IMG/VR virus record: IMGVR_UViG_3300032092_000037
Span: 1-55,633 of that record
DNA: 55,633 nt
Reading direction: 5' to 3' (one strand)
From: a virus
Taxonomy: Duplodnaviria > Caudoviricetes
Part shown: positions 6,175-22,494 of the stretch, piece after piece
Layout of the letters: each line of letters begins with the position of its first letter
Numbering within the stretch: position 1 is the stretch's first letter
Position numbers and translations under genes: made by a program
Notes under the pieces: generated by a model
The model's input: only the letters and a program-made list of their open reading frames with translations
What the model was told of the DNA's origin: nothing
The model's database searches: none

Positions 6175-6359
6175 GGCCTTGGCCTCCGCAGTTCACCTCC
6201 CGCCTTGTTCCAAGTGTGGGATATAGCGCCATTGTGGCAATTCTCCAATTGGGGGAACTGCGGGGGCTTGCGAAGTGCTTGGAATGGGTGTCCTATGACA
6301 CGAATGAGGCGGCCTCTTGCTACAGGGGCCGCCTCACACAAATGCCGCATGGAGGCACC

Positions 6360-6767
6360 GTGTCTGACACCGATAATAGCGCGCTTGCGCCGTCTGTCAC
6401 GCCACAAGTTCACGACAATCTGTTGGCAGGAACTCTCAGCGAGCTGCGCGCGCGGGAGCGCCGGTTCTCGGAACACCTCGAACGCGCCTGCGAGGAGCGT
6501 CGCCTGATGGCGGCGGCGGTTTTGCAGGGAAAACTTGCTCGCCTCCGCGACGAAATCCACAGCAGGGAGGCATTTGCGGCCGGCGAACAGGCTTTTGCCG
6601 CCGGCGCAGCCTTTGCCGACAACCCCCATCGCAGTCGCGCCCGGCGAAGAGGTTGGGAGGCCGGCTGGACCTCCGCCCGGGACGCCAGTGGCTTCACCCT
6701 GACGCACGACCCCCTGACCGGGTGGCCGATCAGCGACCCTCGCGACGACGAGGAGCCGCCGCTGTGA
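6360..6767 (+). CDS. Protein with C-terminal Rmf/CrpP-like motif
   Basis: GGAGG SD then GTG; AFAAGEQAFAAG...NPH...WEAGW pattern. Confidence 0.6.
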   Translation: MSDTDNSALAPSVTPQVHDNLLAGTLSELRARERRFSEHLERACEERRLMAAAVLQGKLARLRDEIHSREAFAAGEQAFAAGAAFADNPHRSRARRRGWEAGWTSARDASGFTLTHDPLTGWPISDPRDDEEPPL

Positions 6768-7639: not shown

Positions 7640-8138
7640 CCTCGCGGCGGCGCTCAGGGTGGCGCACGAAAGCATGGCGCCGGCCCCGGTCGAGATGATC
7701 GAGGAATGGCTTGCGCGGCTCAGCGTGAAGACCGCGCGGCGGAAGGATTCGGCGCATGGCGACGAGCTGGCCCTCAGCGTCTACACCGATCATCTGCGCG
7801 ATTATCCCGGTGACGTGGTGCGCGAAGTCCTAAGCAGCTATCGCGGGACGTGGTTTCCGACATGGGGCGAACTGGCCGAACGGCTGGACGAACTGACCGA
7901 GGTTCGCGCCATGATCCGCGACAGGCTCCTCGAAATGGCTCACGGCGTCCAGCGCAAGCAGATCACGCATGATCCGGTTGCGGAGCATCTTGCAAAGCTT
8001 CGCGATGAACTGGCCGCAGCCGAGCGCGTGGCGTCACGCTATCCCGAACTGGCCGACAGCAGCGCACGAAAGCGGCAGGCTATTGCAGACGAAATCGCCA
8101 AGCTGGAGGGGCGTGCTGCTACCCCTTCCTCGCCCTGA
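7569..8138 (+). CDS. Putative helicase loader/inhibitor-like replication protein (start uncertain)
   Basis: Position after initiator; YTDHLRDYP...WFPTWGEL motif. Confidence 0.55.
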   Translation: MIDGEMTFRQRATSLTLNLASSNDLAAALRVAHESMAPAPVEMIEEWLARLSVKTARRKDSAHGDELALSVYTDHLRDYPGDVVREVLSSYRGTWFPTWGELAERLDELTEVRAMIRDRLLEMAHGVQRKQITHDPVAEHLAKLRDELAAAERVASRYPELADSSARKRQAIADEIAKLEGRAATPSSP

Positions 8139-8259
8139 CCCACTCGCTGAGTATCTTCACGACCAGCCAGGACCGGGAGCGCTCGTCCTTCGCCGCCAGC
8201 CGCTCGATCTTGTCCAGCACCTCCACCGGAACCCGCACGCTCAGAATTTTCGTCGCCAC
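8119..8259 (-). CDS. CopG/Arc ribbon-helix-helix protein
   Basis: ILSVRVPVEVLDKIERLAAKDERSRSWLVVKIL; GAGG SD. Confidence 0.75.
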   Translation of the reverse strand: MATKILSVRVPVEVLDKIERLAAKDERSRSWLVVKILSEWVRARKG

Positions 8260-8420
8260 TGTTGACCTCGCCTGTTGCGTGTGACACCGTACACGAAACG
8301 AGGGCGGGCGCAAACACAGGGGGCGCACAGTGCACAGCAAATCCGGGCCAACTTCGTAAACGAAATCGAGAGACTTGAACGTATCAACGCAAACTGACAC
8401 AACTGGGACGGGAGCTGTTT

Positions 8421-8900
8421 ATGTACGATGGGGCGGCGGACACTCTGGCGGGCGTTGAGCTACGAACCAAGCCGTTCGAGACGGTGATGGACGTCAAGCG
8501 CATGGTGGCGCGGCGCTACGGCGTCACGGTGCAGGACATCGAAGGCCCCAGCCGCGCGCCCATGTTCTCGCATCCGCGACAGGTCGCCATGGCGCTGGCC
8601 TATCGCCGCCTGAAGTCCAAGGGGGCGTCCTACCCGCTCATAGGCCGGGAGTTCGGAGGCCGCCACTGGACAACCGTGATCTTCGCGTGCCGGAAGTTCG
8701 GGCGCAACGCCGACCCTCAGCTTTCCGAGATAGCCAGGCGCGCGGTCGATACGCGCCAGAAGCGCATTGCAGCCGCTGAGCGCAAGGCAGAGAAGCGGGA
8801 GGCCGTCCCGACCCCGCCCGAGCCTGAGTACCGCACGCGTGAGCAGATCAGGCGCCGGCACTGGATGCGCGAGGCGGGGTTCTTTGGAGGTGTGTCATGA
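8421..8900 (+). CDS. DnaA C-terminal (domain IV)-like HTH protein
   Basis: VARRYGVTVQDIEGPSR...HPRQVAMAL...SYPLIGREFGGRHWTTVIFACRK. Confidence 0.85.
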   Translation: MYDGAADTLAGVELRTKPFETVMDVKRMVARRYGVTVQDIEGPSRAPMFSHPRQVAMALAYRRLKSKGASYPLIGREFGGRHWTTVIFACRKFGRNADPQLSEIARRAVDTRQKRIAAAERKAEKREAVPTPPEPEYRTREQIRRRHWMREAGFFGGVS

Positions 8901-9334
8901 CCCGCCCCAACGCCGCCCTAGCCCTGAAGCAGGACGACCGCCCCGCATCGCTGCGCCGCAAGCCGCAGGAGCGCGTCAAGGCTGCTGACGTTGCAACCTA
9001 CCTGACCGAGGAGCAAATCCAGGTTGCGGTTGCGCAGTATCTCGACGCCAAGCTGCCGCGCGACTGGCGCTGGCATCATCCCCCAAACGGCGGTTGGCGA
9101 AAGAAGGCCACGGCGGCGCGTCTCAAGGCCCAAGGCGTCAAGCCCGGCGTTCCCGATATCTGCATCCTGCGGCCCAACGGTTTGCCCATCTGGATCGAAC
9201 TGAAGGCCTTCGGCGGCACACTCACGCTCGCCCAGCGCGATTTCATGGAGTGGTGCATCGCGGCCAAGCATCCGTTCAAGGTCTGCCGTTCCGTTGGCGA
9301 AGTCGAGGTGTTCCTGAAGGAGTTCCTTGCGTGA
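8897..9334 (+). CDS. VRR-NUC domain nuclease
   Basis: EEQIQ...HPPNGG...GVKPGVPDICIL...WIELK...LTLAQ (PD-(D/E)XK). Confidence 0.85.
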   Translation: MTRPNAALALKQDDRPASLRRKPQERVKAADVATYLTEEQIQVAVAQYLDAKLPRDWRWHHPPNGGWRKKATAARLKAQGVKPGVPDICILRPNGLPIWIELKAFGGTLTLAQRDFMEWCIAAKHPFKVCRSVGEVEVFLKEFLA

Positions 9335-9936
9335 CCCTCCACACAGGCTCAGGCCCTCTCCCCCAGCACATCTACTGCCATGTCGAGCGCAGCTTTGTCC
9401 GCACGGGCGAGCAGGCCGGCACAGAGCCGTGCGTGTGGTTTGGCCTTCGCGCTTACGCAGGCCGCGCATGGGGCTGCCATGTGATGCTTGAGTGTGGCGC
9501 AGTCGTCCGTGACATCCCGCTGCACGCGCTGGCGCAGTCCGTCGAAGCGGCGCCGTGGACGCTCGAATCCGCCCAGCACTGGGACTGCTACGGCGACCAG
9601 TTCTCGCTGGTCCGCTACACCTATCTGCAAGGCCTTGAAGCCCGCGCCAAGTGCGGCCCGGCAGAGCATCTGGGCGAGTACCTGTTCACCGCCTGCCCGA
9701 TGCACGACGGCTTCAGCGCAGAGCCTGAACAGTCGAAGGAGTTCGTGTTCCTGGCGCTCCGCAACGGACGCTTCACGGCACAGCCAACGAACCGCGTGCT
9801 GTTTATCGAGCGCAGCTTCACCGAGGCCCAAGCGTGGCCGACCGACATCCAGCGCCAGAGCGAAGTCTGGTCGTGCGAGAGCGCGCCGGACGTTGAACTG
9901 AGGCGGGTGGTCGAGACGCTGGGGGAGGCCGCATGA
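9331..9936 (+). CDS. Phage hypothetical protein
   Basis: GTG coupled to the upstream stop; 201 aa with globular composition. Confidence 0.7.
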   Translation: MTLHTGSGPLPQHIYCHVERSFVRTGEQAGTEPCVWFGLRAYAGRAWGCHVMLECGAVVRDIPLHALAQSVEAAPWTLESAQHWDCYGDQFSLVRYTYLQGLEARAKCGPAEHLGEYLFTACPMHDGFSAEPEQSKEFVFLALRNGRFTAQPTNRVLFIERSFTEAQAWPTDIQRQSEVWSCESAPDVELRRVVETLGEAA

Positions 9937-10232
9937 CCAACCGCAAGGATTTCGGGGACGTGAAAGCCGCCGCTGCACAGGCCGCCCAGCTTGTTGCTCA
10001 TCGCCTCACCTGCGAGGGCTGCTCTGCCCTGCGCGGCGTGCGCCCGATGTGCCAGGCCGAAGCCTCTCCCCATTACCGCCAGCCCCGCCATGCGGGAAAC
10101 GAACGGTGCGGGGTCTATTCGGTGAAGGGCGCGAGCAAGCCCGCAGCGCCGGAGCCTGCGCCCGTTTCGCGCGCGGCCATTGCCGGCGAGGTGGCCAGGC
10201 GCAAGCACAATCGGTGGGAGCGTCGGGCATGA
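9933..10232 (+). CDS. Cys-rich hypothetical protein
   Basis: Coupled; CEGC...C...C. Confidence 0.6.
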   Translation: MTNRKDFGDVKAAAAQAAQLVAHRLTCEGCSALRGVRPMCQAEASPHYRQPRHAGNERCGVYSVKGASKPAAPEPAPVSRAAIAGEVARRKHNRWERRA

Positions 10233-10639
10233 TGTTCTATTGGGGCGAGCCTGAGATTGAACGCCTGCGGGTTCTGTGGGCCAAGGGCGTGTCGTGCGCC
10301 GACATTGGCAGGCAGATGGGAACGACGAAGAACGCCGTTGTCGGCAAAGCGCGGCGTCTCGGCCTGATGCAGCGGCGGCCCAGCCGCGTTGTGAAGGTGT
10401 TCCCGGCGAGGCTGCCAGCGGTGGCCGGCGAGGTCGGTTTTGCCATCACGGAGCTGGTCAACGGCCAGTGTCGGTATCCGGTTGCCGAAACCCGTTCCGG
10501 TCATCGCTTCTGTGGCGCGGGCTGCGAAGATGGCGTTTCGTATTGCCCCGAACACAAGACAATCTGTTTCAGCGGCTTCAAGTTCCAGCGCCAACGCCCG
10601 CCGGCCGAACACAACATTTTGAGACGGGACGCAGCATGA
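10229..10639 (+). CDS. gcrA: GcrA-family cell-cycle regulator homologue
   Basis: W...ERLRVLWAKGVSCADIGRQMGTTKNAVVGKARRLGL and ELVNGQCRYPV...FCG...YCPEH. Confidence 0.85.
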   Translation: MMFYWGEPEIERLRVLWAKGVSCADIGRQMGTTKNAVVGKARRLGLMQRRPSRVVKVFPARLPAVAGEVGFAITELVNGQCRYPVAETRSGHRFCGAGCEDGVSYCPEHKTICFSGFKFQRQRPPAEHNILRRDAA

Positions 10640-11010
10640 ACACCACCCAGCAGCGTCTACGGGACGTCCAGCAAGCGCTCAACGATGGCGGCTGCATCAG
10701 CACGCTGGCGACGCAATGGGGCATATCGAAGCCCGCGACTTGCCAGTGGATGGACCGCCATGCGAACCCCGAAGATCGCCGCAAGCTGGCCGAGAATGGC
10801 CGCACGCGGGGGCAGCAGAAAATTCGCGGCTTCGACCTGTCGGCGCGCATGGAGCTGATCGCGGCCTGTCGGGCTGCGGGCATGTCGTGGGAGCGCATTG
10901 GCGAAGCCATCGGCCGCAGCGGCGTAGCGCTCTGGACGCTTGCCCGTTGCAACGCCCCTGACGGCCTTGCCGCCGCCCTTGAAGACTTCCGAGACGACGA
11001 AGCCGCGTAG
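10636..11010 (+). CDS. Tandem HTH protein
   Basis: LATQWGISKPATCQW and GMSWERIGEAIGRS. Confidence 0.65.
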   Translation: MNTTQQRLRDVQQALNDGGCISTLATQWGISKPATCQWMDRHANPEDRRKLAENGRTRGQQKIRGFDLSARMELIAACRAAGMSWERIGEAIGRSGVALWTLARCNAPDGLAAALEDFRDDEAA

Positions 11011-11036
11011 CGTTTCAACAATCAGAGGGACCACAC

Positions 11037-11903
11037 ATGAGCCTGCTCGAAGAACTGAAGAAACGCCGCGCCGATTTGGATGACCGCATCGGGCAACATG
11101 ACAATATGATCGCGACGCACGCACGCGCCATCGAAGAGTTGACGCATCAGGCGTGCGACTTGGACGTTGCTATCGCCGCCCTTCAGCCCGACCCCATCCC
11201 CGAGCTCGAGACGCAGACCGGGGAGGAGGTGGAGATTCCGCCCGGCTTTACGAAGTGGGAGGGCGGGGAGTGGTGCCCGGTTGACCCGGGCGATAGAGTT
11301 GAAATTATACACCCCAACGGCAAACGCAGCTTTGGTTCGCCAGTAAACGTCGGGTGGCAATGGCTCAATTCCTCTGCGCCGAACGGCATCATCGCCTACC
11401 GCGTCCTCGACCCTCTTCCGTCCACGGACGATTACCACAGCCCTGAGTTTGGCGACGAGGTTCTGAGCGACGAGCCCGACGACGCCAGCGAGTTCGCGGC
11501 AGACGACACACAAGCTTCGGCTACGGAAGCCGCCAACCGCATTGAAGGCGCTTCCGAAGTGGTGACCTCCCCCGGCGAGGTCGGAGAAAGCCGGGACCAT
11601 TTCGCCCTGATCGACCAGCAGACATGCGAGCCCGTGCTTCCGCATCCCGAATGGAATGAGGATGTCGTCGCCACCCGCACCTACATGGATGGGGACAAGC
11701 TTGTTGTGCGCGAGATCACGGCAGACGAGTTCTACGCGCCGATGCCAGAAAGCGAGCCGCCCACAGAAGGCTACGCGCCCGTGACCAACCCCGAGGCCGA
11801 CGCTCAGGCCAAGGCCTACGACTACTACAGCCCCGAGAATGTCGAGAAGCGCAGCCGCTTCGACATCTTCAGCGTGTTCAAGCGCGAACCGGAGGGCGTG
11901 TGA
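11037..11903 (+). CDS. Acidic hypothetical protein
   Basis: GAGGG SD; coiled coil followed by the WxGGECPV...IIAYR-type phage domain. Confidence 0.75.
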   Translation: MSLLEELKKRRADLDDRIGQHDNMIATHARAIEELTHQACDLDVAIAALQPDPIPELETQTGEEVEIPPGFTKWEGGEWCPVDPGDRVEIIHPNGKRSFGSPVNVGWQWLNSSAPNGIIAYRVLDPLPSTDDYHSPEFGDEVLSDEPDDASEFAADDTQASATEAANRIEGASEVVTSPGEVGESRDHFALIDQQTCEPVLPHPEWNEDVVATRTYMDGDKLVVREITADEFYAPMPESEPPTEGYAPVTNPEADAQAKAYDYYSPENVEKRSRFDIFSVFKREPEGV

Positions 11904-11985
11904 TGACCTGGGAAGGCTGGCTCATTCTCACGCTGGTCGCCTCCGGCATTGTTCTCGGCGTCGCTTGGTGGGGAAGGCACAAGTC

Positions 11986-12150
11986 ATGAAGTTCGCATTC
12001 TTCCTCGCCGGCATGACCTATCTCGGCATTCTCGCCCTGATCACCGCCATGCCACCAGCCTCGCCCGTGGACACGCAGATCATCCTCGGCGGCGCGGGCC
12101 TGACCTTTCTCGGCTTCAGCGCAATGGCTGGCGACCGGAGGCGGCGATGA
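11986..12150 (+). CDS. Small membrane protein
   Basis: Two hydrophobic segments; coupled overlaps. Confidence 0.5.
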   Translation: MKFAFFLAGMTYLGILALITAMPPASPVDTQIILGGAGLTFLGFSAMAGDRRRR

Positions 12151-12250
12151 GCGAGCAGTTCATCGCCCAAGGCTTCTGGGCCTGCGCGGCCGTTCTCGCG
12201 CTTTGCGTCATCGCAGCAATCATCAACCAGTGGCAGAGGGGCAGCTAGCC

Positions 12251-13027
12251 ATGAACGGGGAGACGGGGGAAATGACGGCCAGGCAGAAGCGCTTGGCGGA
12301 ACTGGACCAGATCGACAGACTGACGCGCTCACAGATCAGGGAGCGCGCCAAGCTTTTGGCCGCAGAGCGCGCCGCACAGGCCAAGGCGCCGGTGCGGGAG
12401 GCCTATGAACCCGCCGTCGCCAAGCACGCAGACGACCGGGTCATTCCCGGCCTGACAGGCAAGGGCGCAATCCAGCGCCTCGACACCCTTGGCAAGCTCT
12501 GGGAGGCTGGCAAGATCACGCCGGCCCAGTATAGCGCGGGGCGGGACTATCTCGCCATCGTGGAGCACTATTTCGCAACCGCCTCGGGGCTGGCCAAGCT
12601 TAGCGAGGAGGCGGCCCGCGTCGGCGGGGATGGCGACCCCATCCGGCGCTATCTCAAGGCCCGCCCGGCGCGCAAGCAACCCGATGGACGGGTCACGGGC
12701 TACATCCCCACCCAGCGGCCCCGCAATCCCCCCAGCCATCGTCCCAGCAGCGACGGGTGGACGGCGACGAAGCTCAACGCGATGTCGGAGTTCTCGCGCA
12801 TGGCAAAGCTTGTGGACAGGCTGGACCGTGAGGCGTGCACCGCGCTGTGCGTGCTGGTCATCGACCCGGCGCGGCCAGACCTGCCCGCCTTGAGCGTCGG
12901 TGCGGCCTGCCGGCGCCTGTTCGGCAGCGACATGGGTCGCAACTATGCGATCCTGACGCGCTGGTTGTGTCGCGCCTTGGACGCACTCGACGCAGAATTT
13001 ATGGCGCAGGCCCGCGTCGCAGCTTGA
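12251..13027 (+). CDS. Putative late-transcription regulator (DUF6456-like, Q position)
   Basis: LDTLGKLWEAGKITPAQYSAGRDY motif; last gene of the early/middle operon, with a TTGACG overlapping its stop. Confidence 0.55.
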   Translation: MNGETGEMTARQKRLAELDQIDRLTRSQIRERAKLLAAERAAQAKAPVREAYEPAVAKHADDRVIPGLTGKGAIQRLDTLGKLWEAGKITPAQYSAGRDYLAIVEHYFATASGLAKLSEEAARVGGDGDPIRRYLKARPARKQPDGRVTGYIPTQRPRNPPSHRPSSDGWTATKLNAMSEFSRMAKLVDRLDREACTALCVLVIDPARPDLPALSVGAACRRLFGSDMGRNYAILTRWLCRALDALDAEFMAQARVAA

Positions 13028-13119
13028 CGGGTGCCGAAAACCAATGGAGACATTTGCCTCAATCCCAGCAATTCGCTTTGAGGCGGCCCGGTTCGCAAGT
13101 TCCGGGCTTCGGGGCTGTC

Positions 13120-13272
13120 ATGGCAAATGCAAGACTGACGCCGGAGACGGTGCAGAAAATCCGCGCTGAGGCGAAGCACTGGCCCCAGCGCGTCCTGATG
13201 CGGCGCTACAATCTTGCCCGCCAGACAATTCATGAGATCATCACCCGCCAGACATGGCGGCATGTGGCGTAG
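13120..13272 (+). CDS. Stand-alone small HTH resembling HNH C-terminal DNA-binding domains
   Basis: ARLTPETVQKIR...RRYNLARQTIHEIITRQTWRHV. Confidence 0.6.
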   Translation: MANARLTPETVQKIRAEAKHWPQRVLMRRYNLARQTIHEIITRQTWRHVA

Positions 13273-13282
13273 GCCCGCCCAA

Positions 13283-13298
13283 CGTTTCACGTGAAACA
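13283..13298. promoter_or_regulatory. parS: parS centromere-like site
   Basis: cGTTTCACGTGAAACA: perfect 14-bp palindrome, 15/16 match to TGTTTCACGTGAAACA; intergenic. Confidence 0.8.
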
Positions 13299-13322
13299 CT
13301 GTCCTTAACCAAGGGGGCTGGC

Positions 13323-13961
13323 GTGTCCCGTTTCTTCGACCAGCTCACCGAATTGGCCGGGCTCTACCCGATCAATGACGCGTTCATTGAGGCCTTGCGC
13401 CAGCGGGTGATCCGGGAATGCTCCAAGGTTCCGGTGCAGGTCCACAAGCGGATGAGGGCCGAGCGCAGGCTTGAACTGGCGGCCTGCGAGGCGATTGTCG
13501 CCATGTGGCAGGAGACCTACCTGGACGCCTGGTTCCCGATCACCATGCGCAGGGACTGGCCCCGCGCCATCTGCATCATCAAGGGCAACACGGCGCGGAT
13601 TTCCTTCAGCATCGGCCCCGAGACGGAAGACGGCGGGCAGGAGATCGAGCCTGTCGAGTTCGCGGTGGTCCGCACTCCGCCCAACATCATCAGCAAGGCC
13701 CTGCGGGCTTTCAACAAGCGCGACCCGAAAGCCGAGCGGGAGAGGGAATTCGCCCCGGTTGGCACGCCAGATGGGCGGCCGGAACTGAAGCTGAATCAGC
13801 CTGTCGACCAGAAGCAAGCATTTCGGGCCCAAACAGCCAAAAAGCCTATTGATAGCAAAGCTGTAATGGTGGCGCCCAAAAGCGAAAGATCAACCCCGCC
13901 CCCGCTCACAGAGCGTCCGCCGACCGCCAAGCCGACGCGCAGGGCCAAGCTGGGGCGTTGA
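13323..13961 (+). CDS. Hypothetical protein
   Basis: AAGGGGG SD then GTG; basic Pro-rich tail. Confidence 0.65.
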   Translation: MSRFFDQLTELAGLYPINDAFIEALRQRVIRECSKVPVQVHKRMRAERRLELAACEAIVAMWQETYLDAWFPITMRRDWPRAICIIKGNTARISFSIGPETEDGGQEIEPVEFAVVRTPPNIISKALRAFNKRDPKAEREREFAPVGTPDGRPELKLNQPVDQKQAFRAQTAKKPIDSKAVMVAPKSERSTPPPLTERPPTAKPTRRAKLGR

Positions 13962-13990
13962 GAACCAGCGCGGGATGGGGTAGATTTTAA

Positions 13991-14120
13991 GTGTCGCGGC
14001 GGCGTGGATAGACACGCCCATTGCCTAGCCGAATGGTTGCTAGGGTTGGAACTCCGTCTCTCGGAATCCGAGGGAGACTTGCAAGCACGGAGAGCCGGTA
14101 ACCAACCCGGCCCGCGACAC
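13991..14120 (+). ncRNA. Expanded tRNA-like cloverleaf RNA
   Basis: 9-bp closing stem GTGTCGCGG/CCGCGACAC, D-like arm GCGTG-GATAGA-CACGC, T-like arm GCCGG-TAACCAAC-CCGGC abutting the 3' strand, two enlarged central arms. Confidence 0.6.
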
Positions 14121-14151
14121 GAAATCAGCCTCGGATGAGGCAGAACGAGAC

Positions 14152-14236
14152 GGGGGAGTTGCGGGTTCGAATCCCGCCAGCCGATGATCGGGTTTCTAGG
14201 CCCCGTAGGCTGTAGCTCAATTGGCAGAGCGCCCCC
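14152..14236 (+). tRNA. Circularly permuted tRNA-like gene (3' half precedes 5' half; anticodon undefined)
   Basis: GGGGG-AGTT-GCGGG TTCGAAT CCCGC-CAGCCGA (14152-14184), about 20-nt linker, then TAGGCTG-TA-GCTC AATTGGCA GAGC-G-CCCCC (14206-14236); acceptor (6/7) and anticodon (5/5) stems pair across the halves. Confidence 0.75.
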
Positions 14237-14251
14237 ACCCCGCCCAAACGC

Positions 14252-14279
14252 AAAAGCCCCGCCGTGTGAGGGCGGGGCT
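14252..14279 (-). terminator. Intrinsic terminator for the minus-strand gene 14302..15165
   Basis: AGCCCCGCC/GGCGGGGCT stem followed by TTTT on the minus strand. Confidence 0.7.
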
Positions 14280-14301
14280 CAGGCCATCGGGATCGACCGG
14301 C

Positions 14302-15165
14302 TCAGGTATCGTTCGCCGCGACAAGGAAGGGTTTGAACCCCTGCGGCGGTTTGGCTTTGGCGGCTTCCTTTGCCGCTTTGGCCCTGGCCTTTTCGCGGGC
14401 AGCGCGCTGTTGGGCGCGAAGTTCGCGGGCCTTTTCCTGGCGGCGCTCTTCGCGCTTTGCCTCGGCTTTCGCCTCAGCGGCCAGTTTCGCCTCATGATCC
14501 TTGCGGATCCTGCGGGCGGTGGCTTCAAGGGACCAGATCGCGAGGGCAATCGAGAGGTCCAGAAGCCCGCCGACCAGCCAAACGGCCCAATCGGGGGCCA
14601 GCGGGCGGTAGGTGGCCTCGGCAGCGCTCAGGGCCTTGAGGGCGGCTGAGCGGTCAGCCTTGGCGGTTTCGACTGCAAGCGCCAGCGGCGCACGTTGGGC
14701 TTCCCACGATGCGGTTTTCGCCGCGGTCGTCTTGGGGCAGAGGCAGTCGGGAAGGGCGAGGGCCGGGAAGGCGTCGAGAGCGGCCTGCGCCTTCTCGAGC
14801 CGATCCGTGGTCCTGCCAACCTCGAGCTTTAGCGGCTCGAGACCGGCTTCGAAGGCGGCCTTGTGGGGCGCTTCGATGACGACGCCGTAGAAATTGTGGA
14901 AGCTCACGGCCTGCATGGCCATCGCAACCATCAGAACCGGGATCACGCCGGCCGACGCCCAAGAGCGTCCGAGGGCAATCACGGTGAAGGGAATGACCAG
15001 GGCCGTAGCGCCAGCGCCAAAGGCGAGGGCGAAGCGGGTGATCTGGTCCATGTCGCTCTGAAGCCAGCCATAGAGCCCGAGGGCGCCCATGGCGAAGGAA
15101 AACAGCGCGAGGAAGACAAGGCCGGGCTTGAACCCGGCGGGTTTGGTCTTGATAACAGTGGTCAT
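14302..15165 (-). CDS. Moron membrane protein (about 3 TM, coiled coil, TM, basic tail)
   Basis: Hydrophobic segments, Ala/Glu/Lys coiled coil with CLC at its turn; own promoter and terminator, opposite to flanking genes. Confidence 0.75.
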   Translation of the reverse strand: MTTVIKTKPAGFKPGLVFLALFSFAMGALGLYGWLQSDMDQITRFALAFGAGATALVIPFTVIALGRSWASAGVIPVLMVAMAMQAVSFHNFYGVVIEAPHKAAFEAGLEPLKLEVGRTTDRLEKAQAALDAFPALALPDCLCPKTTAAKTASWEAQRAPLALAVETAKADRSAALKALSAAEATYRPLAPDWAVWLVGGLLDLSIALAIWSLEATARRIRKDHEAKLAAEAKAEAKREERRQEKARELRAQQRAAREKARAKAAKEAAKAKPPQGFKPFLVAANDT

Positions 15166-15194
15166 TGGTCAGCTTTCTCTGATCAATCAGACCG

Positions 15195-15309
15195 TCCGGC
15201 GGTGAGACGCCGTGCGATCCGGCCGGGGGCTTAGGCTCCCGGCTGTTGGGTTTGTGGTCGATCCTGCGATGTCAATTCGCTCTCCGGCGGCAAACTCGCG
15301 CCGTGCGAT
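15195..15309 (-). repeat. Duplicated hairpin motif in the 5' leader
   Basis: TCCGGCGG-N5/N8-CGCCGTGCGAT at 15195-15218 and 15283-15309. Confidence 0.7.
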
Positions 15310-15378
15310 AGTGAGAACCTAGCCGCTCGCCCTGAGCATTTCGCCGTTACACCAAGCGTTATTTCGCGAACGGCGGGC

Positions 15379-15407
15379 AGTATTTGATCACATTCGCGTG
15401 ATCGCAA
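15379..15407 (-). promoter_or_regulatory. Moron promoter with operator-like palindrome
   Basis: Minus TTGCGA-N17-AATACT; GATCAC-N6-GTGATC at 15386-15403. Confidence 0.55.
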
Positions 15408-15448
15408 GCATTTGCCAAATCCAGCGCAAGTAAACGAGGCGCGAATAC

Positions 15449-15691
15449 ATGCACACTTACATCAAGCTAAAGCGCCCGAGGTTCGGCGGTGATGCGGTGA
15501 TGCTCATCGACCGTGCCTTCTACAAACTGGACCTTGCCAAGCAGCGCGAGATGATCCGAGCGATGCTTGATCAGGGCCGCTCTGTGGATCAAGCCATAAC
15601 CCGCGCCATCAATGCTGGCGCCATGCCCGCCACCGAGGCCACCCGCAACGCAGAGGCGGCCGTGCTTCGCGGACAGCCGGAGACGGCGTGA
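15449..15691 (+). CDS. Hypothetical protein
   Basis: GAGG SD; 80 aa. Confidence 0.55.
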   Translation: MHTYIKLKRPRFGGDAVMLIDRAFYKLDLAKQREMIRAMLDQGRSVDQAITRAINAGAMPATEATRNAEAAVLRGQPETA

Positions 15692-15909
15692 TGTCGAACT
15701 ATCTTCGATTGGCGGAAATCTACATGGCGCCGCATCTTTACGCCGCAGAGTTCAGGATGACGCCCAACCTGGGGGATGTCGTCAATGTCGAGCACCCCGA
15801 CGTGCTGGGGGCGGTCGCAATTGGCCCCATGGGCTGGAAGAATCAGCGCGACATGATTGTTCGCGCGCAGGAAACGCGCGGGCGCGCGATCAAACCAGTC
15901 TGGTGTTAA
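15688..15909 (+). CDS. Hypothetical protein
   Basis: Coupled to the upstream gene. Confidence 0.5.
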   Translation: MMSNYLRLAEIYMAPHLYAAEFRMTPNLGDVVNVEHPDVLGAVAIGPMGWKNQRDMIVRAQETRGRAIKPVWC

Positions 15910-15991
15910 GCCCAGCCTGAACCCCTTCCCAGCGCCGGGCAGTCGCCACTGAGCGACGCCGGCTCACCCTTCCTCAACAAAGGTCGCAGCA

Positions 15992-16258
15992 ATGGCCGTA
16001 ACCTCTGTCAACGACACGGCGACAAGCACCGTTCTTGTCGCGCCCAGCACGGCGCTGGTTGGCGTTTCCGTGTTCAACGACTCGACGGCCATTCTCTACA
16101 TCCTTCAGGGACAGGGAACGGCCAGCGCGACAAACTTCAGCGTCAAGCTCGACGCTGGCGATTACTGGGAGAGCCCGGATCGTTCATATGTGCGCGGCGG
16201 CCTCACCGGCATCTGGGCGAGCGATGCGTCGGGCGCCGCCCGCATAACGACGTGGTGA
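15992..16258 (+). CDS. Small beta-rich putative virion protein
   Basis: VSVFNDSTAILYI...ASATNFSVKL...GIWAS; Thr/Ser/Ala-rich. Confidence 0.65.
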   Translation: MAVTSVNDTATSTVLVAPSTALVGVSVFNDSTAILYILQGQGTASATNFSVKLDAGDYWESPDRSYVRGGLTGIWASDASGAARITTW

Positions 16259-16262
16259 CCTG

Positions 16263-16805
16263 ATGCCGCTCTACAAAGCCTCAGCATCCGAACTGGCCGC
16301 CCTTGTCGCGGCCGACACCAACACGTCCGGCTTCATCAAGGATACCGAAGGCTGGCGCATCCTGGGCGCGTCCGGCGTCGCCGTCTCCCACACCGGCAAC
16401 ACCTCAGAAACCGCGCTTTCGACCACCGCCGTTGCCGCTGGCGCAATGGGCCCCAACGGCATCCTTCGTGTTCGCGCCCTGTTCAGCTATACCAACAGCG
16501 CGAACAACAAGAACCTGCGCATTCGCCTCGGCGGCGTCTCAGGCACCGAGTTCGCCAACATCACGGCCACCACGACCGTCCATCACGATATCATCCGCAC
16601 GATCCACAACCGCAACTCGGCCTCATCGCAGGTTGGCATACTTGCCACATCAACAAACCCCCTGACGGCATCCTCCGGTGCACTTATCGCCGGAACCATC
16701 AACACCGCCAACGCGCAGGATCTGGTGATTTCCGGCCAGCTCGCCAGTTCAGGCGAAACCGTCACCCTGGAAAGCTACATCGTTGAACTGAAGTACGGCG
16801 CCTAG
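16263..16805 (+). CDS. Putative virion protein
   Basis: Thr/Ser/Gly-rich beta-type 180-aa ORF. Confidence 0.65.
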   Translation: MPLYKASASELAALVAADTNTSGFIKDTEGWRILGASGVAVSHTGNTSETALSTTAVAAGAMGPNGILRVRALFSYTNSANNKNLRIRLGGVSGTEFANITATTTVHHDIIRTIHNRNSASSQVGILATSTNPLTASSGALIAGTINTANAQDLVISGQLASSGETVTLESYIVELKYGA

Positions 16806-16829
16806 CGCCTTTGAGTGGAGGACCAAGCC

Positions 16830-17318
16830 GTGACGACCAAACTTCGTTTTCGCCGCAATGACCCAGCCCTGAACAGGGTTGCGAACGTTTCCACGCGACT
16901 GGTTGCGGCCGGCGCAACCCTCACCATGGTGCAGGACACGCACGAGGCGAAGATCATCTGCCTCGACACCGCAGCCGGCAGCGTCGTCACGCTTCCCCCC
17001 TCCACCGGGGGCGGGGCCATCTATCGCTTTCTCGTCACCGTGACGGCGACCAGCAACAGCCACGTCATCAAGGTCGGCAACGCCACGGACGAGTTCCGCG
17101 GCTTTGTCGTGCAGGACAGCGACACGGCCACAGCCCCGAATATCTGGTGGGCGGCCGACAACGATGACACCATCACGCTCAACCGCACGACAACCGGCCT
17201 TGCGGCCCAGGGCGAGTATTTCGAGATTGTCGACGGCCTCGCCGGCCATTTCATGGTTCGCGGCTTCAGCCAGGCCTCCGGCACCGAGGCAACGCCCTTC
17301 AGCGCGACGGTTTCCTAA
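16830..17318 (+). CDS. Putative capsid decoration/fibre-like protein
   Basis: GGAGG SD; VVTLPPSTGGGAIYRFLV...DTITLNRTTTG...ATPFSA. Confidence 0.65.
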   Translation: MTTKLRFRRNDPALNRVANVSTRLVAAGATLTMVQDTHEAKIICLDTAAGSVVTLPPSTGGGAIYRFLVTVTATSNSHVIKVGNATDEFRGFVVQDSDTATAPNIWWAADNDDTITLNRTTTGLAAQGEYFEIVDGLAGHFMVRGFSQASGTEATPFSATVS

Positions 17319-17321
17319 CCC

Positions 17322-17696
17322 ATGGCCTATGTCCGGCCCATTGTTCGCGTTCGGGAGAACAACCGCCGCATCATTCGCGGCGGCGTCTGGGACTGCGAAC
17401 AGGGCCGGACGGTCTTCCAGGCGACATCGGACGAAGCCTTCAAGGTCAATGTGGACTTCACCGACATCCTGGCCGGTGGAAGCCTGACCGCGACCGTGGA
17501 ATCCGATGGCGCGACCGTGACATCCAGCGTATCCTCCGGCGTCGTGACCCTCACCATCTCCGCCGTATCCAGCAATGCCGACATCGATCTCAAGGCCACC
17601 TTCAGCGACGGCCGCATCCAGCAGGAATTCCTGCGGGTGAAGGACCCGTTTGTGGGTGTTCGCGACGATTACGGCCCAGCACTGGCCAACACATGA
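17322..17696 (+). CDS. Putative virion protein (Ig-like/adaptor)
   Basis: Beta-rich 124-aa ORF in the operon. Confidence 0.55.
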   Translation: MAYVRPIVRVRENNRRIIRGGVWDCEQGRTVFQATSDEAFKVNVDFTDILAGGSLTATVESDGATVTSSVSSGVVTLTISAVSSNADIDLKATFSDGRIQQEFLRVKDPFVGVRDDYGPALANT

Positions 17697-17968
17697 CCGA
17701 CTTCGCCAAGGAACTCGAAGGCAAGGCCTACCAGCTCTGCAACGGGATGATCGAGCTGGAGGAGTTCAAAAGTTGGTTCGCCATGGCCAAGGCCGCACTT
17801 GCCCCGGACGCGCCGGCAGCTTTCACGCTTACGCCGCATCAGGCTTACGGACACGTTAGCGCTGGCAAAAACCGTGAGTTCTCCGACTACTACCAGCGCC
17901 CCTACGAGCCGATGGACGCCGACATGGAAGCTCATCACCGCAAGCTCATGGGCGGGGGAGATCCGTGA
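17693..17968 (+). CDS. Hypothetical protein
   Basis: Coupled ORF. Confidence 0.55.
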   Translation: MTDFAKELEGKAYQLCNGMIELEEFKSWFAMAKAALAPDAPAAFTLTPHQAYGHVSAGKNREFSDYYQRPYEPMDADMEAHHRKLMGGGDP

Positions 17969-18168
17969 GCAGGCGCATCGTCCTGACAATCACCGATGAA
18001 CTCGCCGAACGCATCTCCCGCGTCGCCAGCCATTACGACAGGGACGCAAAGACCTACATAATCGAAGCAATCGACGACCAGACCGCCATGCTAGAAGAAT
18101 ACCACCATCAGGAAGCCTGCGAGCAGATACGCTATCTCGTGCAGGTCGAGCCTGCGGGAAGCGCGTAG
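17965..18168 (+). CDS. Ribbon-helix-helix-like protein
   Basis: RIVLTITDELAERISRVA...YIIEAI. Confidence 0.55.
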   Translation: MSRRIVLTITDELAERISRVASHYDRDAKTYIIEAIDDQTAMLEEYHHQEACEQIRYLVQVEPAGSA

Positions 18169-18282
18169 CAAAAATCTTGCGCGCCGCTGCCGGTAAAACG
18201 CCCGCAAAGGGCATGACCGCATCGCGCCCGACCCCAGAAATGCCAGTTCCATAGCTATAGCCACAAGCAAGAACTACATCGC

Positions 18283-18810
18283 ATGACCGAAAACGCGGAT
18301 GGCGAAGCCGTCAAAAACGGTCGGCCAACAATCTTCACGCCGGAACTGGCAGCAACCATCACAACTCGCCTCATGGCAGGCGAAAGCCTTCGCAGCATTT
18401 GCCGCGATCCCTCCATGCCAGCACGCTCAACGGTTCATCTCTGGATCGCAACGAATAGCAGTTTTTCGGACCAGTACGCACGGGCATGTGAAATCCGCGC
18501 TGAAGAGCTGTTCGATGAGATGTTCGACATCGCGGACAATGCGCAGAACGACTGGATGGCCAGACACGGCGAAGATGACGCTGGCTGGCAGGTAAACGGC
18601 GACAACATCCAGCGCGCACGCCTTCGCGTTGATACCCGCAAATGGGCGCTCGCCCGCATGAACTCAAAGAAGTTCGGGGACAAGGTCACCCAAGAGGTAG
18701 TCGGCAAAGATGGCGGCCCTATCGCGACCACGTCAATCGACCCCAAAAAGCTCAGCAAGGCGCAAATCGAAGCCCTTGCCACAATCCGCCTACCAGCCGA
18801 CAGCCGCTGA
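18283..18810 (+). CDS. terS: Terminase small subunit (Sf6 gp1-like)
   Basis: GRPTIFTPELA...GESLRSIC...MPARSTVHLW...RARLRVDTRKWALARMNSKKFGDK. Confidence 0.9.
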   Translation: MTENADGEAVKNGRPTIFTPELAATITTRLMAGESLRSICRDPSMPARSTVHLWIATNSSFSDQYARACEIRAEELFDEMFDIADNAQNDWMARHGEDDAGWQVNGDNIQRARLRVDTRKWALARMNSKKFGDKVTQEVVGKDGGPIATTSIDPKKLSKAQIEALATIRLPADSR

Positions 18811-20323
18811 CGTTCTCGCAGCCCGCCAGCATCTGGCGCGTGAGGACGTGAAATGGTTTGCCCGGATGGTGGACATTCCCACGGTCCCGGTTTCTGCGGC
18901 CGCTGAGGAAGACAGGTTCGAAACGCTGGCAATCGATGCGTTGGCGCTGCATCACGACATCCTGCTGGATCGGCTGCAGGACCTCGCTGACGGCAAAATA
19001 CGGAACCTGATGGTTCTGATGCCGCCAGGCTCGGCCAAATCGACTTACGTGGATGTGGTCTTTGTCCCGTGGTTCATGGCGCGGCAGGACCGCCGCAACG
19101 TGATCATGACGAGCTACGGCTCGGACCTTGCGAGGAAGCAGGGCAGGCGAGCGCGGCAGCTTGTTCGGTCCAGAAGCTTTGGCCACCTGTTTCCAGGCGT
19201 GACCATCTCGGCGGATTCGAGCGCGGCTGACGAGTGGAGCCTGACCAACGGCTCGGAATACATGGCAGGCGGCATCCTGTCAGGTGTGACCGGAAACCGT
19301 GCTGACCTGCTGGTTGTGGACGACCCGGTCAAGGGACGCGAGGAAGCTGAGAGCGAGACAATCCGCAAGAAGACGCGGGATGCTTATATCGACGACCTGC
19401 AGACCCGCCTGAAGCCGGGCGGCCGAACAGTGGTCATCCAGACGAGGTGGCACGCCGACGACCTGGCCGGCGGCATCCTGCCTGAGAACTGGAGCGGCGA
19501 AAGCGGCATGATCCGCTGCCGTGACGGGCAGGACTGGTACGTGCTGGCGATTGCGGCGAAGGCGACGAAGAACAACGATCCGCTGGGCCGCAAGGTTGGT
19601 GAATATCTCTGGCCGGAGTGGTTCGGGCCGGATCATTGGGCAAAATTCGAGGCAAACCCACGCACGTGGTCGAGCCTGTTTCAACAGGTTCCCTCGCCTG
19701 AGGAAGGCACATTCTTCCAGCGCGCATGGTTCAAGCGCCATGCCCGCAGGCCTGATGTGGTGAATACCTACATCACGAGCGACTATGCCGTGACGGAAGG
19801 CGATGGGGACTACACCGAACATGGCGTCTGGGGTCTGGACCCGGACAACCGGCTTTTCATGCTGGACTGGTGGCATGGCCAGACAAGCTCGGACGTGTGG
19901 ATCGAGCGCCTGTTGGACCTGATCGAGCGCTGGAAGCCGCTGTGCTGCTTTGGCGAAAAAGGCGTGATCGAGAAGGCGGTTCGCCCGCAGCTTGATCGCA
20001 GGATGATGGAACGTCGCGTCTATGCCCGCATGGAATGGCTGCCCAGCATTGCGGACAAGCCGACGCGGGCGCGTGCATTCCAGAGCCGCGCTGCAATGGG
20101 ACTTGTGAGCCTGCCCGAGACCGAGGACGGAGAGCGCGTGCTGTCGCAACTGCTGACATTCCCCGCAGGCAAGCATGATGACGCTGTCGATGTGTGCTCG
20201 CTGATGGGCGCTGCGATCGACCAGGCGCATTCCGGCATTGCCATGCCCGCGAACCAGCGCGTAGCGGCGCGTAGCGGCTACGCCCCCGTCCGTGAAAGCG
20301 GAGGCGCTTCGTGGAGGACATGA
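18710..20323 (+). CDS. terL: Terminase large subunit (true start may be downstream)
   Basis: Walker A MPPGSAKS, Walker B LLVVDDP, IQTRW coupling motif, nuclease SDYA and HDDAVD. Confidence 0.95.
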   Translation: MAALSRPRQSTPKSSARRKSKPLPQSAYQPTAADVLAARQHLAREDVKWFARMVDIPTVPVSAAAEEDRFETLAIDALALHHDILLDRLQDLADGKIRNLMVLMPPGSAKSTYVDVVFVPWFMARQDRRNVIMTSYGSDLARKQGRRARQLVRSRSFGHLFPGVTISADSSAADEWSLTNGSEYMAGGILSGVTGNRADLLVVDDPVKGREEAESETIRKKTRDAYIDDLQTRLKPGGRTVVIQTRWHADDLAGGILPENWSGESGMIRCRDGQDWYVLAIAAKATKNNDPLGRKVGEYLWPEWFGPDHWAKFEANPRTWSSLFQQVPSPEEGTFFQRAWFKRHARRPDVVNTYITSDYAVTEGDGDYTEHGVWGLDPDNRLFMLDWWHGQTSSDVWIERLLDLIERWKPLCCFGEKGVIEKAVRPQLDRRMMERRVYARMEWLPSIADKPTRARAFQSRAAMGLVSLPETEDGERVLSQLLTFPAGKHDDAVDVCSLMGAAIDQAHSGIAMPANQRVAARSGYAPVRESGGASWRT

Positions 20324-22494
20324 AGCCGGAAGCCGCTCAGGGCGCAGAGTTCAAGGGCAAGGGAATCGAGGCCTACAAGCGCATGTTCGCGCGGGCCGAG
20401 GAAGCCTGCACCGAAGCCCGCAAGCTGGCGCACCGTGACCGCGACTGGCACGACAACTTCGACGACAGCCAGTGGAGCGACGAAGAGAAGAAAACCCTGC
20501 TGGAGCGCCGGCAGCCAATCGTCACGTCCAACCGGATCAAGCGCAAGATCGGCTTCCTTTGCGGACTGGAGCAGAAGCAGCGGACTGACCCCAAGGCCTA
20601 TCCGCGCAATCCGCAGGACGCCGACACGGCGGCCATCGTCACCGACGTGCTGGACTACATCGAGCAGGAGACCCGGTTCGACAACCTTGCCTCGCAGGCG
20701 TTCCGCGACCTGAACATCGAGGGCATCGAGGCGGTCGAGGTGATCGTCGAGAATGGCGACGAGATTGTCGTCAATCACCTGATGTACGATGGGTTTTTCT
20801 ACGATCCGCGCTCGAAGAAGCGGGACTTCTCGGACGCGCGCTATCTCGGCTATCAGGACTGGTTTGACGAGGACGAAGCCTTCGACCTGTTCCGCCAGAA
20901 GGCGGACGACCCGAAGGAACAGGAAAAGCTCGATGCGGAACTGAGGTCCAAGCTTCAGAGCAGCTACGAGGAAGGGGCGCAGGACGAGGGCTACGAGGAC
21001 AAGCCCTACAACATGTGGGGCGATGAGGATCGCAACCGGGTCCGCATCGCGTGCATGTACTGGCGCGGCCAGGGTAAGGTCTGGAACTACGTCTACTTCA
21101 CGGGTGGCGGCGTCCTGAAGGAGGATGTCAGCCCGTATCACGACGATAATGGCAAGCCGGATTGCGCCATCATCGCCGCCTCGGCTTACATGACGCGGAA
21201 GAACGAGCGTTATGGCTCGGTGCGGGACATGATCAGCCCGCAGTCGGAGATGAACTTCCGCCGCTCGCAGGCGCTGTTCCTGATCAAGCAGCGCAGGACG
21301 TGGGCAAGGGCCAAGGGTATCCTGCCGGCCAATGCGAGCGAAATCCTGGCGTCTGCGGATGCGCAACTGATTGCGCAGGGCGTGCTTGGGCAGGACTGGG
21401 GCTTCATCGAGAGCGCGCAGGAAGTCGCGCAGAACTTCGAACTGCTTCAGGAAGCCAAGGGCGAGATCGACACGCAGGGTCCGAACGCGGGCCTTCAGGG
21501 GCGCGGGACGGAGGATCAGTCAGGCCGCGCCATCATTGCCCAGCAGCAGGCTGGCATGGCCGAAGAGAACGACCTCTTCGACACGCACAACGATTTCAAG
21601 CTGCGGGTCTACCGGGCCATGTGGTTCCGGGCGAAGCAGTTCTGGACCGAGCCAAAATACATCCGCATTACGGACAAGCCCGATGCGTTCCGGTTCATTC
21701 ACCTGAACCAGCAGCAGCCTGTTATGGACCCGATGACGGGCCAGCCGCAGATGGGGCCGGACGGCCAGCCGGTCATGCAGATGGTTCCCGGCACCGAACT
21801 GGCGAAAATGGATGCCGACATCACGCTGCACGCGGCGCCGGAATCGCTGACATTGCAGCACGAGGAGTTCGTCCAGCTTGCCGACATGGCGAAGTCTGGC
21901 GTTCCGATCCCGCCCGACGTGCTGCTGGAAGCCTCGCAGATCCGGGACAAGGAAAAGCTCGCCAAGCGGATACAGGAAGAGGGCGGGGCGCAGGCCAAGC
22001 TTCAGCAGGCCGCGCAGCAGATCGAGGAAATGCAGAAGGTCATCGAGGAGATGCAGTCCCGGCTTCAGGACGCCTCCCAGAGCACTGAGGGCATGAAAGC
22101 GCTGGCCGAGGCGGAGAAGTCCAAGGACGAACTGCGCAAGCGCGAACTGGACAACCAGCAGTATGCGATGGACTTCGAGCTGAAGTCGCAGGCCAACGAC
22201 CTGAAGGCGCGTGAACTGGAGATCAAGGAGCAGGAGCTTGCCGCAGCCCAGCGCGAGACGATGCGCGTGGCTGAGGAAGACGGCAAGGCCCGCGCTGCGG
22301 ACAGCATGAGGCTGGACCAGGCATTTGCCGGCCTTGCGCAGACGCTTCAGCAGATCGCCGCGACGCAGCAGCAGACAGCGGCCCTGATCCTTGAGCAGGG
22401 CGACATGGAATCGGAAGCGGTGATTGACCGCGATCCTGTCACCAACCGCATGATCACGGCGCGTGTCGTCAAGAAGAGACGGGGAGCCGCTTAA
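20311..22494 (+). CDS. Portal protein, P22-like with long C-terminal barrel
   Basis: Follows terL; SQWSDEE...NRIKRKI...DPRSKKRDFSDARY...SGRAI; Gln-rich coiled-coil tail. Confidence 0.9.
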   Translation: MEDMKPEAAQGAEFKGKGIEAYKRMFARAEEACTEARKLAHRDRDWHDNFDDSQWSDEEKKTLLERRQPIVTSNRIKRKIGFLCGLEQKQRTDPKAYPRNPQDADTAAIVTDVLDYIEQETRFDNLASQAFRDLNIEGIEAVEVIVENGDEIVVNHLMYDGFFYDPRSKKRDFSDARYLGYQDWFDEDEAFDLFRQKADDPKEQEKLDAELRSKLQSSYEEGAQDEGYEDKPYNMWGDEDRNRVRIACMYWRGQGKVWNYVYFTGGGVLKEDVSPYHDDNGKPDCAIIAASAYMTRKNERYGSVRDMISPQSEMNFRRSQALFLIKQRRTWARAKGILPANASEILASADAQLIAQGVLGQDWGFIESAQEVAQNFELLQEAKGEIDTQGPNAGLQGRGTEDQSGRAIIAQQQAGMAEENDLFDTHNDFKLRVYRAMWFRAKQFWTEPKYIRITDKPDAFRFIHLNQQQPVMDPMTGQPQMGPDGQPVMQMVPGTELAKMDADITLHAAPESLTLQHEEFVQLADMAKSGVPIPPDVLLEASQIRDKEKLAKRIQEEGGAQAKLQQAAQQIEEMQKVIEEMQSRLQDASQSTEGMKALAEAEKSKDELRKRELDNQQYAMDFELKSQANDLKARELEIKEQELAAAQRETMRVAEEDGKARAADSMRLDQAFAGLAQTLQQIAATQQQTAALILEQGDMESEAVIDRDPVTNRMITARVVKKRRGAA

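Follow-up and report, generated by a model that had tools for sequence, protein, structure and literature searches.

The window analysed here is the whole of IMG/VR record IMGVR_UViG_3300032092_000037, a viral sequence of 55,633 bp that is classed as linear and estimated to be 92% complete. Positions 14152-14236 on its plus strand carry a T-arm half followed downstream by a D-arm half, which together amount to a tRNA body minus the anticodon loop. This element is most likely a tRNA-mimic non-coding RNA and not the gene of a decoding tRNA. We consider it probable, with a good deal of room for doubt, that it is a tRNA mimic of the YrlA type and forms the 3' module of a non-coding RNA of about 250-290 nt, which is encoded in a lineage-specific cassette and would tether or sequester host factors. 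The architecture of the module is a rediscovery, because the YrlA design has already been described and has phage members. What is new in comparison with YrlA is the lack of a recognisable Ro60 or Ro60-binding stem, the presence of a new 5' domain, and the placement in a stand-alone cassette that is missing in related phages.

A tRNA body in permuted order

The module consists of a closing stem, a T arm, a closed acceptor-like (AS) stem-loop and a D arm, arranged as follows.

14152-14236, plus strand: whole tRNA-like module, delimited by the YrlA match, fold, swap test and alignment
14152-14156, plus strand: 3' strand of the closing ("anticodon") stem, GGGGG
14157-14160, plus strand: variable region, AGTT
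14161-14177, plus strand: T arm, GCGGG / TTCGAAT / CCCGC
14178-14184, plus strand: acceptor 3' strand, CAGCCGA
14185-14205, plus strand: 21-nt linker that caps the acceptor-like stem
14206-14212, plus strand: acceptor 5' strand, TAGGCTG
14213-14214, plus strand: TA
14215-14230, plus strand: D arm, GCTC / AATTGGCA / GAGC
14231, plus strand: G
14232-14236, plus strand: other strand of the closing stem, CCCCC

A first-pass annotation of this DNA had placed a circularly permuted tRNA gene at this site, and the letters of the window agree exactly with its coordinates and with the order of the halves. The complementarity that it described is also present, with six of seven acceptor pairs (mismatch A2.G71) and all five pairs of the closing stem, which stands where the anticodon stem would be; the T stem forms 5/5 pairs and the D stem 4/4. 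Every canonical tertiary position of a tRNA that was checked is found in the module, namely U8, A14, A15:U48 (the alternative Levitt pair), G18, G19, A21, G53:C61, T54, T55, C56, R57, A58, and G26/A44. As had been claimed, neither CCA nor a U33-type loop is encoded there, and the flanking sequences (ACGAGAC before 14152 and ACCCCGC after 14236) do not put U33 in place. The minimum free energy (MFE) fold of 14140-14250 reproduces the structure described earlier. That structure includes a hairpin in the linker between the acceptor ends; the hairpin is present in the MFE fold, but 460 of 2000 shuffled linkers were equally stable, so this part of the description is not significant.

The expectation that linear tRNA scanners would miss the element was correct. 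ARAGORN reported 0 tRNA and 0 tmRNA genes in the window as written, and Rfam gave 0 matches at gathering scores. When the halves were swapped into canonical order, with either natural 7-nt flank serving as a filler loop, ARAGORN called a 74-nt cloverleaf. The same program called none of 1000 controls in which both halves were shuffled, none of 1000 with the 5' half only shuffled, none of 1000 with the 3' half only shuffled, and none of 1000 equally spaced pieces taken from random places in the phage. Because the swapped halves were called and all four control sets were empty, chance is excluded as an explanation for the module. The in-silico swap proposed in the first-pass annotation therefore yields a sequence that stands far above its shuffled controls.

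Kinship with YrlA RNAs

A permissive Rfam scan covering 13700-14500 (801 nt) returned one clear match, to YrlA (RF02553, Y RNA-like), at 14153-14234 (33.8 bits, E 1.9e-5). The alignment spans model positions 23-85 of 114, which is exactly the tRNA-like module of the family, and the letters of both the T and D stems are those of the RF02553 consensus. As described by Chen et al. (2014, PMC4201824), YrlA RNAs are defined by a T stem-loop, an "AS" stem-loop that replaces the acceptor stem, and a D stem-loop; their tertiary contacts are tRNA-like and include the Levitt pair 15-48, with compensatory changes, and they are likened there to circularly permuted tRNAs. The window module has the same order of elements, with a closing stem in the place of the anticodon stem (RF02553; PMC4201824; structure preprint 10.1101/312249), and likewise carries the tRNA tertiary nucleotides. 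This order, together with the RF02553 match, supports one of the possibilities raised in the first-pass annotation, namely that the element acts as an anticodon-less tRNA mimic. The statement in that annotation that no standard phage example is known was mistaken, given that YrlA-related sequences have been reported from 22 bacteriophages (PMC4201824).

The same paper describes other features of YrlA that provide a basis for comparison. The RNAs carry a 5' motif, GNCGAAN0-1G, that is thought to bind Ro60, and the YrlA gene lies at most 4 kb from the Ro60 (rsr) gene on the same strand (PMC4201824). Published work further reports modification of the tRNA-like module by TruB and DusA, and a role of Y RNAs in tethering Ro60 to PNPase. 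The window differs from this description in that it has no recognisable Ro60 gene within 4 kb or elsewhere in the record, and no recognisable Ro60-binding stem, in place of which stands a structured 5' domain of 130 nt. It differs further in that its score falls under the gathering threshold and its element is a stand-alone cassette between convergent genes.

A class of related modules in phages

Viral contigs were scanned with a pattern consisting of a T-loop word, 25-55 nt, and a D-arm word. This yielded 78 matches in 77 loci, of which ARAGORN read 65 as two ordinary tRNAs, 6 as one tRNA and 7 as none. Six of the seven tRNA-free matches fold as modules made up of a T arm, a closed stem-loop and a D arm. 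Modules from the pattern scan sit inside the tRNA arrays of large phages and have sub-threshold YrlA scores of 33-41 bits. One candidate, L030 1604-1743 (plus strand), was dropped after a full-length Rfam tRNA match (140 nt, 56.5 bits); it appears to be a tRNA of the phage that contains a long insert, possibly an intron.

A covariance model, R1, was built from 8 modules, and the window module scored 81.3 bits against it. From 225 hits to R1 we took the 38 with at least 40 bits, 10 of which were training members. Among the remaining 28, two tRNAs were overlapped by 18 hits and one tRNA by 2, while 8 overlapped none. These eight are again T/AS/D modules, have unrelated AS sequences, and lie outside the selection made by the original pattern.

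The final alignment comprises 16 modules from 13 virus records, with L071 (identical to L043), the L007 copies of L011b and L011c, and L083/L084 left out as identical. Paired cells make up 100% of the T helix, 100% of the D helix and 98.8% of the AS helix, with changes on both sides at 5/5 AS pairs, although these counts are tilted in favour of the fold, since members were selected with patterns and covariance models biased towards it. On each of five measures the observed value was matched by 0/500 shuffles, and slid controls paired in 31-49% of cells. Since members differ in the register of the closing stem, just 46% of its cells are paired, and an anticodon loop is lacking in 16/16 modules. 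A search of phages for the same order with covarying stems, which the first-pass annotation had suggested, thus returned a set of 16 modules in 13 virus records with strong T, AS and D covariation.

Two complete large phages with terminal repeats, L007 (G001, 360,643 bp) and L011 (G002, 306,861 bp), each carry three different T/AS/D modules within tRNA arrays, and have no TROVE domain and no RtcB. Examples in L011 are located at 3118-3226, 4013-4094 and 5136-5218, and one module of this pair of phages has an insertion of about 46 nt in its acceptor-like loop. Phage tRNA arrays also contained tRNA-Sec matches under the gathering score of 47, at L071 6693-6775 (minus strand, 40.1 bits) and L043 2237-2319 (plus strand, 38.1 bits).

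Modules with and without a phage Ro60

One member of the class links the phage modules directly to Ro60. In L026, 1.9 kb separate the module at 4902-4995 (minus strand) from a downstream gene of the same orientation that encodes a 553-aa Ro60, which has a TROVE match of 27.9 bits (above the cut-off) and a vWA_Ro60 domain; tRNA genes adjoin. The L026 element is the same T/AS/D module as that of the window and is likewise under the Rfam threshold, scoring 27.7 bits against YrlA, lower than the 33.8 bits of the window. A sub-threshold YrlA score is therefore no argument against kinship. The two differ in that the L026 module has a phage Ro60 gene nearby, whereas the window has none.

Such linkage was the exception in our set. 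TROVE was found in 1/14 of the module-bearing records examined, and in 0/5 of those that are at least 89% complete (G000, G001, G002, G007 and G010), and several complete large phages carry modules in tRNA arrays without a recognisable Ro60. Divergent Ro60 proteins can require HHpred for detection, as indicated in a paper on Listeria phages, and so "no Ro60" is to be understood only as none that is recognisable. A PDB sequence search with the Ro60 of L363 gave 0 matches. The phage cases that we found in the literature all pair the RNA with a phage Ro60; a description of YrlA-like modules in phages lacking Ro60 was not found in the literature, the supplementary lists of phage YrlA sequences not being covered. 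There was no consistent link to RtcB, which occurs in 1/5 of the large module-bearing records. The provirus-classed record G007 (223 kb, whose two modules are L052) encodes a full RtcB at 195610-196737 (minus strand, 356 bits) and has no TROVE.

A lineage-specific cassette with a second structured domain

The module forms the 3' part of a non-coding block inserted, relative to related phages, between convergent genes. The features of this block and its immediate surroundings are listed below.

13962-14247, plus strand: non-coding cassette of about 286 nt, an indel relative to related phages (from L078, eight further relatives, an X9 contig, and the fold)
13958-13986, plus strand: weak sigma-70-like promoter match, TTGAGA, 17 nt, TAGATT
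13972-13981, plus strand: possible 5' strand of a terminal helix, pairing with 14237-14245 in the MFE fold of 13962-14250
13991-14120, plus strand: orphan structured 5' domain with a 9-bp closing helix (13991-13999/14112-14120) and three or four hairpins
14024-14044, plus strand: hairpin whose loop contains GCCGAATG, the sole GNCGAAN0-1G match
14128-14141, plus strand: small hairpin separating the 5' domain from the module, present in MFE and centroid folds
14237-14245, plus strand: possible 3' strand of the terminal helix, abutting the closing stem of the module
14254-14280: G+C-rich hairpin common to relatives, terminator of the minus-strand gene 14302-15165

Indel boundaries were taken from BLAST coordinates. 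In the related contig L078, whose upstream open reading frame (ORF) has 87% protein identity to that of the window, the two flanks lie 4 nt apart (3704 is the last position of the left flank, and 3709 the first of the right flank and of the terminator), compared to about 290 nt apart in the window. The terminator hairpin is conserved in L078 (97% over 36 nt). Eight more relatives were fetched by means of the downstream gene (71-85% identity), and in all eight the stop of the downstream gene is followed by the terminator and then directly by the convergent gene. The cassette is present in 0/9 of these related phage contigs. Decay of two ordinary tandem tRNAs, which the first-pass annotation had named as a competing origin, finds no trace in these relatives, since 0/9 have a tRNA at the site and the whole block is missing there. 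An X9 contig from a run of another study joins position 13957 to 14246 with two other letters between them (depth 7.2, with a short side of 20 letters).

The cassette contains no plus-strand ORF of at least 60 aa, and it folds more stably than most shuffled versions of itself (z -3.42, with 1/200 shuffles equally stable). Much of the unusual structure is in the 5' domain, for which the MFE is -62.8 kcal/mol (z -4.17, with 0/200 shuffles equally stable). Within the scanned region 13700-14500, this domain matched no Rfam family at E<=0.5. Loop-word patterns aimed at homologs of the 5' domain picked out 112 viral stretches, at least 116 metagenome stretches and another 40 viral stretches. These were rejected as homologs and are attributed to chance, because BLAST with the 5' domain matched nothing in them and BLAST with the module gave only T-arm and D-arm hits. 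One diverged 52-nt relative was found in an X9 contig.

The predicted start of the promoter, at about 13991-13993, coincides with the first base of the 5' domain helix. The possible terminal helix (13972-13981/14237-14245) has one bulged A, an energy of -16.4 kcal/mol, and lies directly under the closing stem of the module; it is modestly above chance, being equalled by 94/5000 and 221/5000 random partners. This helix conflicts with the predicted promoter start, because it requires that transcription begin upstream of the promoter. The genes at 11037-13961 are on the same strand as the module, and from this we infer that the module is at least co-transcribed with them, unless an unseen terminator intervenes.

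Nothing close to the cassette was found elsewhere. A blastn search with 13950-14290 gave no match among 50,697 phage records, and the precise pattern of the module, including the window's own acceptor arms, occurred 0 times in bacterial genome contigs (one genome per species) and 0 times in metagenome contigs. No RNA run was present among the sequencing runs listed as holding words of the window; six runs hold every sampled word and may be where this DNA came from. An X9 contig from a drinking-water metagenome (depth 2.9) shares the D and T arms of 14161-14230, which stand there in the usual order of a tRNA. The place of the anticodon arm is taken in that contig by an 8-bp palindromic stem with an 11-nt loop, and the loop holds a GNCGAANG-type word, as does the hairpin at 14024-14044 of the window.

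Several of our results weigh against a YrlA-type mimic at the 3' end of a discrete non-coding RNA, in addition to the selection of class members mentioned above. With respect to kinship, the match of 33.8 bits is below the RF02553 gathering score of 69, and model positions 1-22 and 86-114, which represent the Ro60-binding part, are unaligned in the window. RF02553 also gives below-cut-off matches in 9/14 control genomes, and junctions of tandem tRNAs reach 59 bits against R1. The lone GNCGAAN0-1G match lies in the loop of a hairpin, at 14028, and with 0.34 such matches expected in 286 nt it carries no significance by itself. With respect to Ro60, the 92%-complete record contains no Pfam TROVE match, and a tblastn search with a phage Ro60 reached no better than E 3.6; this absence applies to the phage record only, and a host Ro60 is outside its scope. 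The folding energy of the module itself is ordinary (z -0.72, with 45/200 shuffles equally stable). BLAST found no homolog of the 5' domain in any fetched locus, and the cassette is confined to one lineage, which leaves the window's own RNA unsupported by conservation. Transcription signals are also weak. Sigma-70-like sites number 6 over positions 1-20000, compared to 3.1 +/- 2.0 in shuffled sequence, and the promoter match at 13958-13986 may be a product of chance; no T-run terminator follows the cassette on the plus strand.

The phage record

The gene content of the record is indicative of a tailed phage. The relevant features are the following.

20311-22494: P22-type portal
29532-30656: capsid protein
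37750-42942, plus strand: polyvalent protein of 1730 aa with an ADP-ribosyltransferase domain (ART-PolyVal, 51 bits)
50385-51902, plus strand: 505-aa protein resembling Hsp70/DnaK (270 bits), encoded directly before the lysozyme in the late part of the phage
51899-53149: lysozyme

The best known relatives of the portal are those of Pseudanabaena phages (35-40% identity), and no prophage relative was found in bacterial genome contigs. Pfam and PHROGs searches with 10 proteins from neighbouring ORFs gave nothing informative. Two other genes were noted. A 200-aa ORF at 6165-6767 (plus strand) has a C-terminus that matches Pfam RMF at 26.3 bits, just under the threshold of 27.9, and a ribosome hibernation factor (RMF-like) carried by a phage would be unusual. 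A 159-aa protein encoded at 8421-8900 (plus strand) has a DnaA C-terminal helix-turn-helix domain (63.9 bits).

Alternative explanations

It is conceivable that the module is a processing or stability element, serving as an RNase P or RNase Z signal or as a block to 3' exonucleases, and thereby defining the 3' end of the upstream mRNA or freeing the RNA of the 5' domain. Published work provides a precedent in the tRNA-like structures found at the 3' end of some mammalian long non-coding RNAs. The location of the module, at the 3' end of a block of plus-strand genes and just before the shared terminator, would suit such a role, and the 5' domain is the more unusual and strongly structured part of the cassette. 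However, nine relatives without the module use the same terminator at the same site, and elsewhere the modules stand in tRNA arrays, where the flanking tRNAs are already processing sites. We therefore consider this explanation unlikely.

In alphaproteobacteria, two-piece (permuted) tmRNA genes place the T-arm and acceptor 3' part upstream of the acceptor 5' part, which is the order seen in the window. By analogy, the module could give rise to a two-piece, chargeable tRNA-like RNA, in which RNase P would cut 5' of 14206, the linker would be trimmed, CCA would be added, and the nicked body would perhaps be aminoacylated, as in two-piece tmRNA or the YrlA of Mycobacterium smegmatis. The acceptor-like stem is 7 bp long, like that of a real tRNA, with 6/7 positions paired, and the G before position 1 can pair with U73 in the ARAGORN drawing. 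A 7-bp AS stem is the reason given for M. smegmatis YrlA being cleaved by RNase P and acquiring CCA in vivo (PMC4201824), and because the window shares this length, cleavage and CCA addition are a real possibility here. M. smegmatis YrlA differs from the window in being bound by Rsr and encoded upstream of rsr, and the stem of the window has one mismatch. This mismatch (A2.G71), the lack of an encoded CCA, and the presence of G3:C70 in place of G3:U70 argue against this explanation, and aminoacylation is reported for no YrlA in the account given in PMC4201824. The phage has no recognisable CCA enzyme, though the host would supply one. Two-piece tmRNA is also unlike the window in having a tag reading frame, pseudoknots, G3:U70 and CCA; ARAGORN found 0 tmRNAs in the window, no Rfam tmRNA family matched, and inspection of the three-frame translation by eye revealed no tag-like frame. 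Taken as a whole, this sequence of events is about as improbable as a processing element.

A functionless remnant would be an even less probable explanation. Two tandem copies of one tRNA that had lost their outer halves, or a fragment of an att site, could have left the present arrangement, and in the former case the halves would automatically be complementary by inheritance and not by selection. The restriction of the cassette to one lineage, and the lack of an RNA run among the sequencing runs listed as holding window words, would fit with this. Such an origin would need each break to coincide precisely with an end of the anticodon stem. ARAGORN finds no tRNA anywhere in the phage, none of the nine relatives has a tRNA at the site, and no exact counterpart of the module occurs in the bacterial genome (one genome per species) or metagenome contigs. 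The phage has neither a tyrosine integrase (PF00589) nor a serine recombinase (PF00239), and an attP site with a tRNA fragment was rejected on this ground and because both halves are present, not the 3' part alone. The design is found again in 13 virus records whose acceptor-like sequences are unrelated. Together, these observations weaken the remnant and attP explanations; in addition, the cassette around the module folds as a single unit.

Permuted tRNA genes are known in red and green algae and in an archaeon, where the 3' half precedes the 5' half and is joined to it by a linker. The window resembles them in this order, in the complementary stems and in the linker, but the algal and archaeal genes have retained the two pieces of the anticodon loop, and a splicing endonuclease and a ligase turn their transcripts into real tRNAs, whereas the window has no such loop. 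Although the halves are complementary and in permuted order, the suggestion in the first-pass annotation that the element could be ligated into a tRNA, for which the transcript's ends would be cut and joined and the linker then removed, is very unlikely to hold, because the flanks rebuild neither U33 nor a 7-nt loop and no RtcB, RNA ligase or CCA-adding enzyme is recognisable in the phage, and it is further disfavoured by the loopless state of 16/16 class members and by closing stems that vary in register (46% of cells paired), which would be unexpected for a real anticodon stem. We know of no ligation-matured permuted tRNA system in bacteria.

Proposed mechanism and implications

In our preferred interpretation, that of a YrlA-type mimic, the RNA would be made from its own weak promoter or by read-through of the upstream plus-strand genes, and would be stable. 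In the fold, its acceptor end is closed by a loop, and the tRNA-like body opens at the place of the anticodon loop. The L-shaped module could then dock on host proteins recognising the elbow of a tRNA and its stack of acceptor and T arm. By analogy with Y RNAs, candidate partners include RNase P, TruB, Dus-type enzymes, or some other effector. The 5' domain may act as a second binding module, allowing the RNA to tether or sequester host RNA-handling factors in infection, possibly a host Ro60 together with PNPase.

A broader proposal, which we put forward tentatively and with considerable doubt, is that YrlA-type modules work in phages without a phage Ro60 and are widespread and unrecognised, and that in the window such a module has been joined, within a mobile non-coding RNA cassette, to a novel domain of 130 nt. 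In its boldest form, the RNA would be cut by RNase P, tailed with CCA, and would act as a two-piece decoy or sponge, diverting host factors, or defences, that read the body of a tRNA and not its anticodon.

The effector of the YrlA tRNA-like module is still given as unknown in the literature that we found on these RNAs. The persistence of the modules in phages without a recognisable Ro60 suggests a separate role for the tRNA mimic in infection. As a compact test case that stands by itself, the window has one cassette in one phage that is cleanly missing in close relatives and has a second RNA domain attached. For the annotation of phage genomes, "permuted tRNAs" in which a T half precedes a D half should be compared with YrlA first. 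The Ro60-independent setting of the modules in phages may also provide a clue to the binding partner of the tRNA-like module in Y RNAs.

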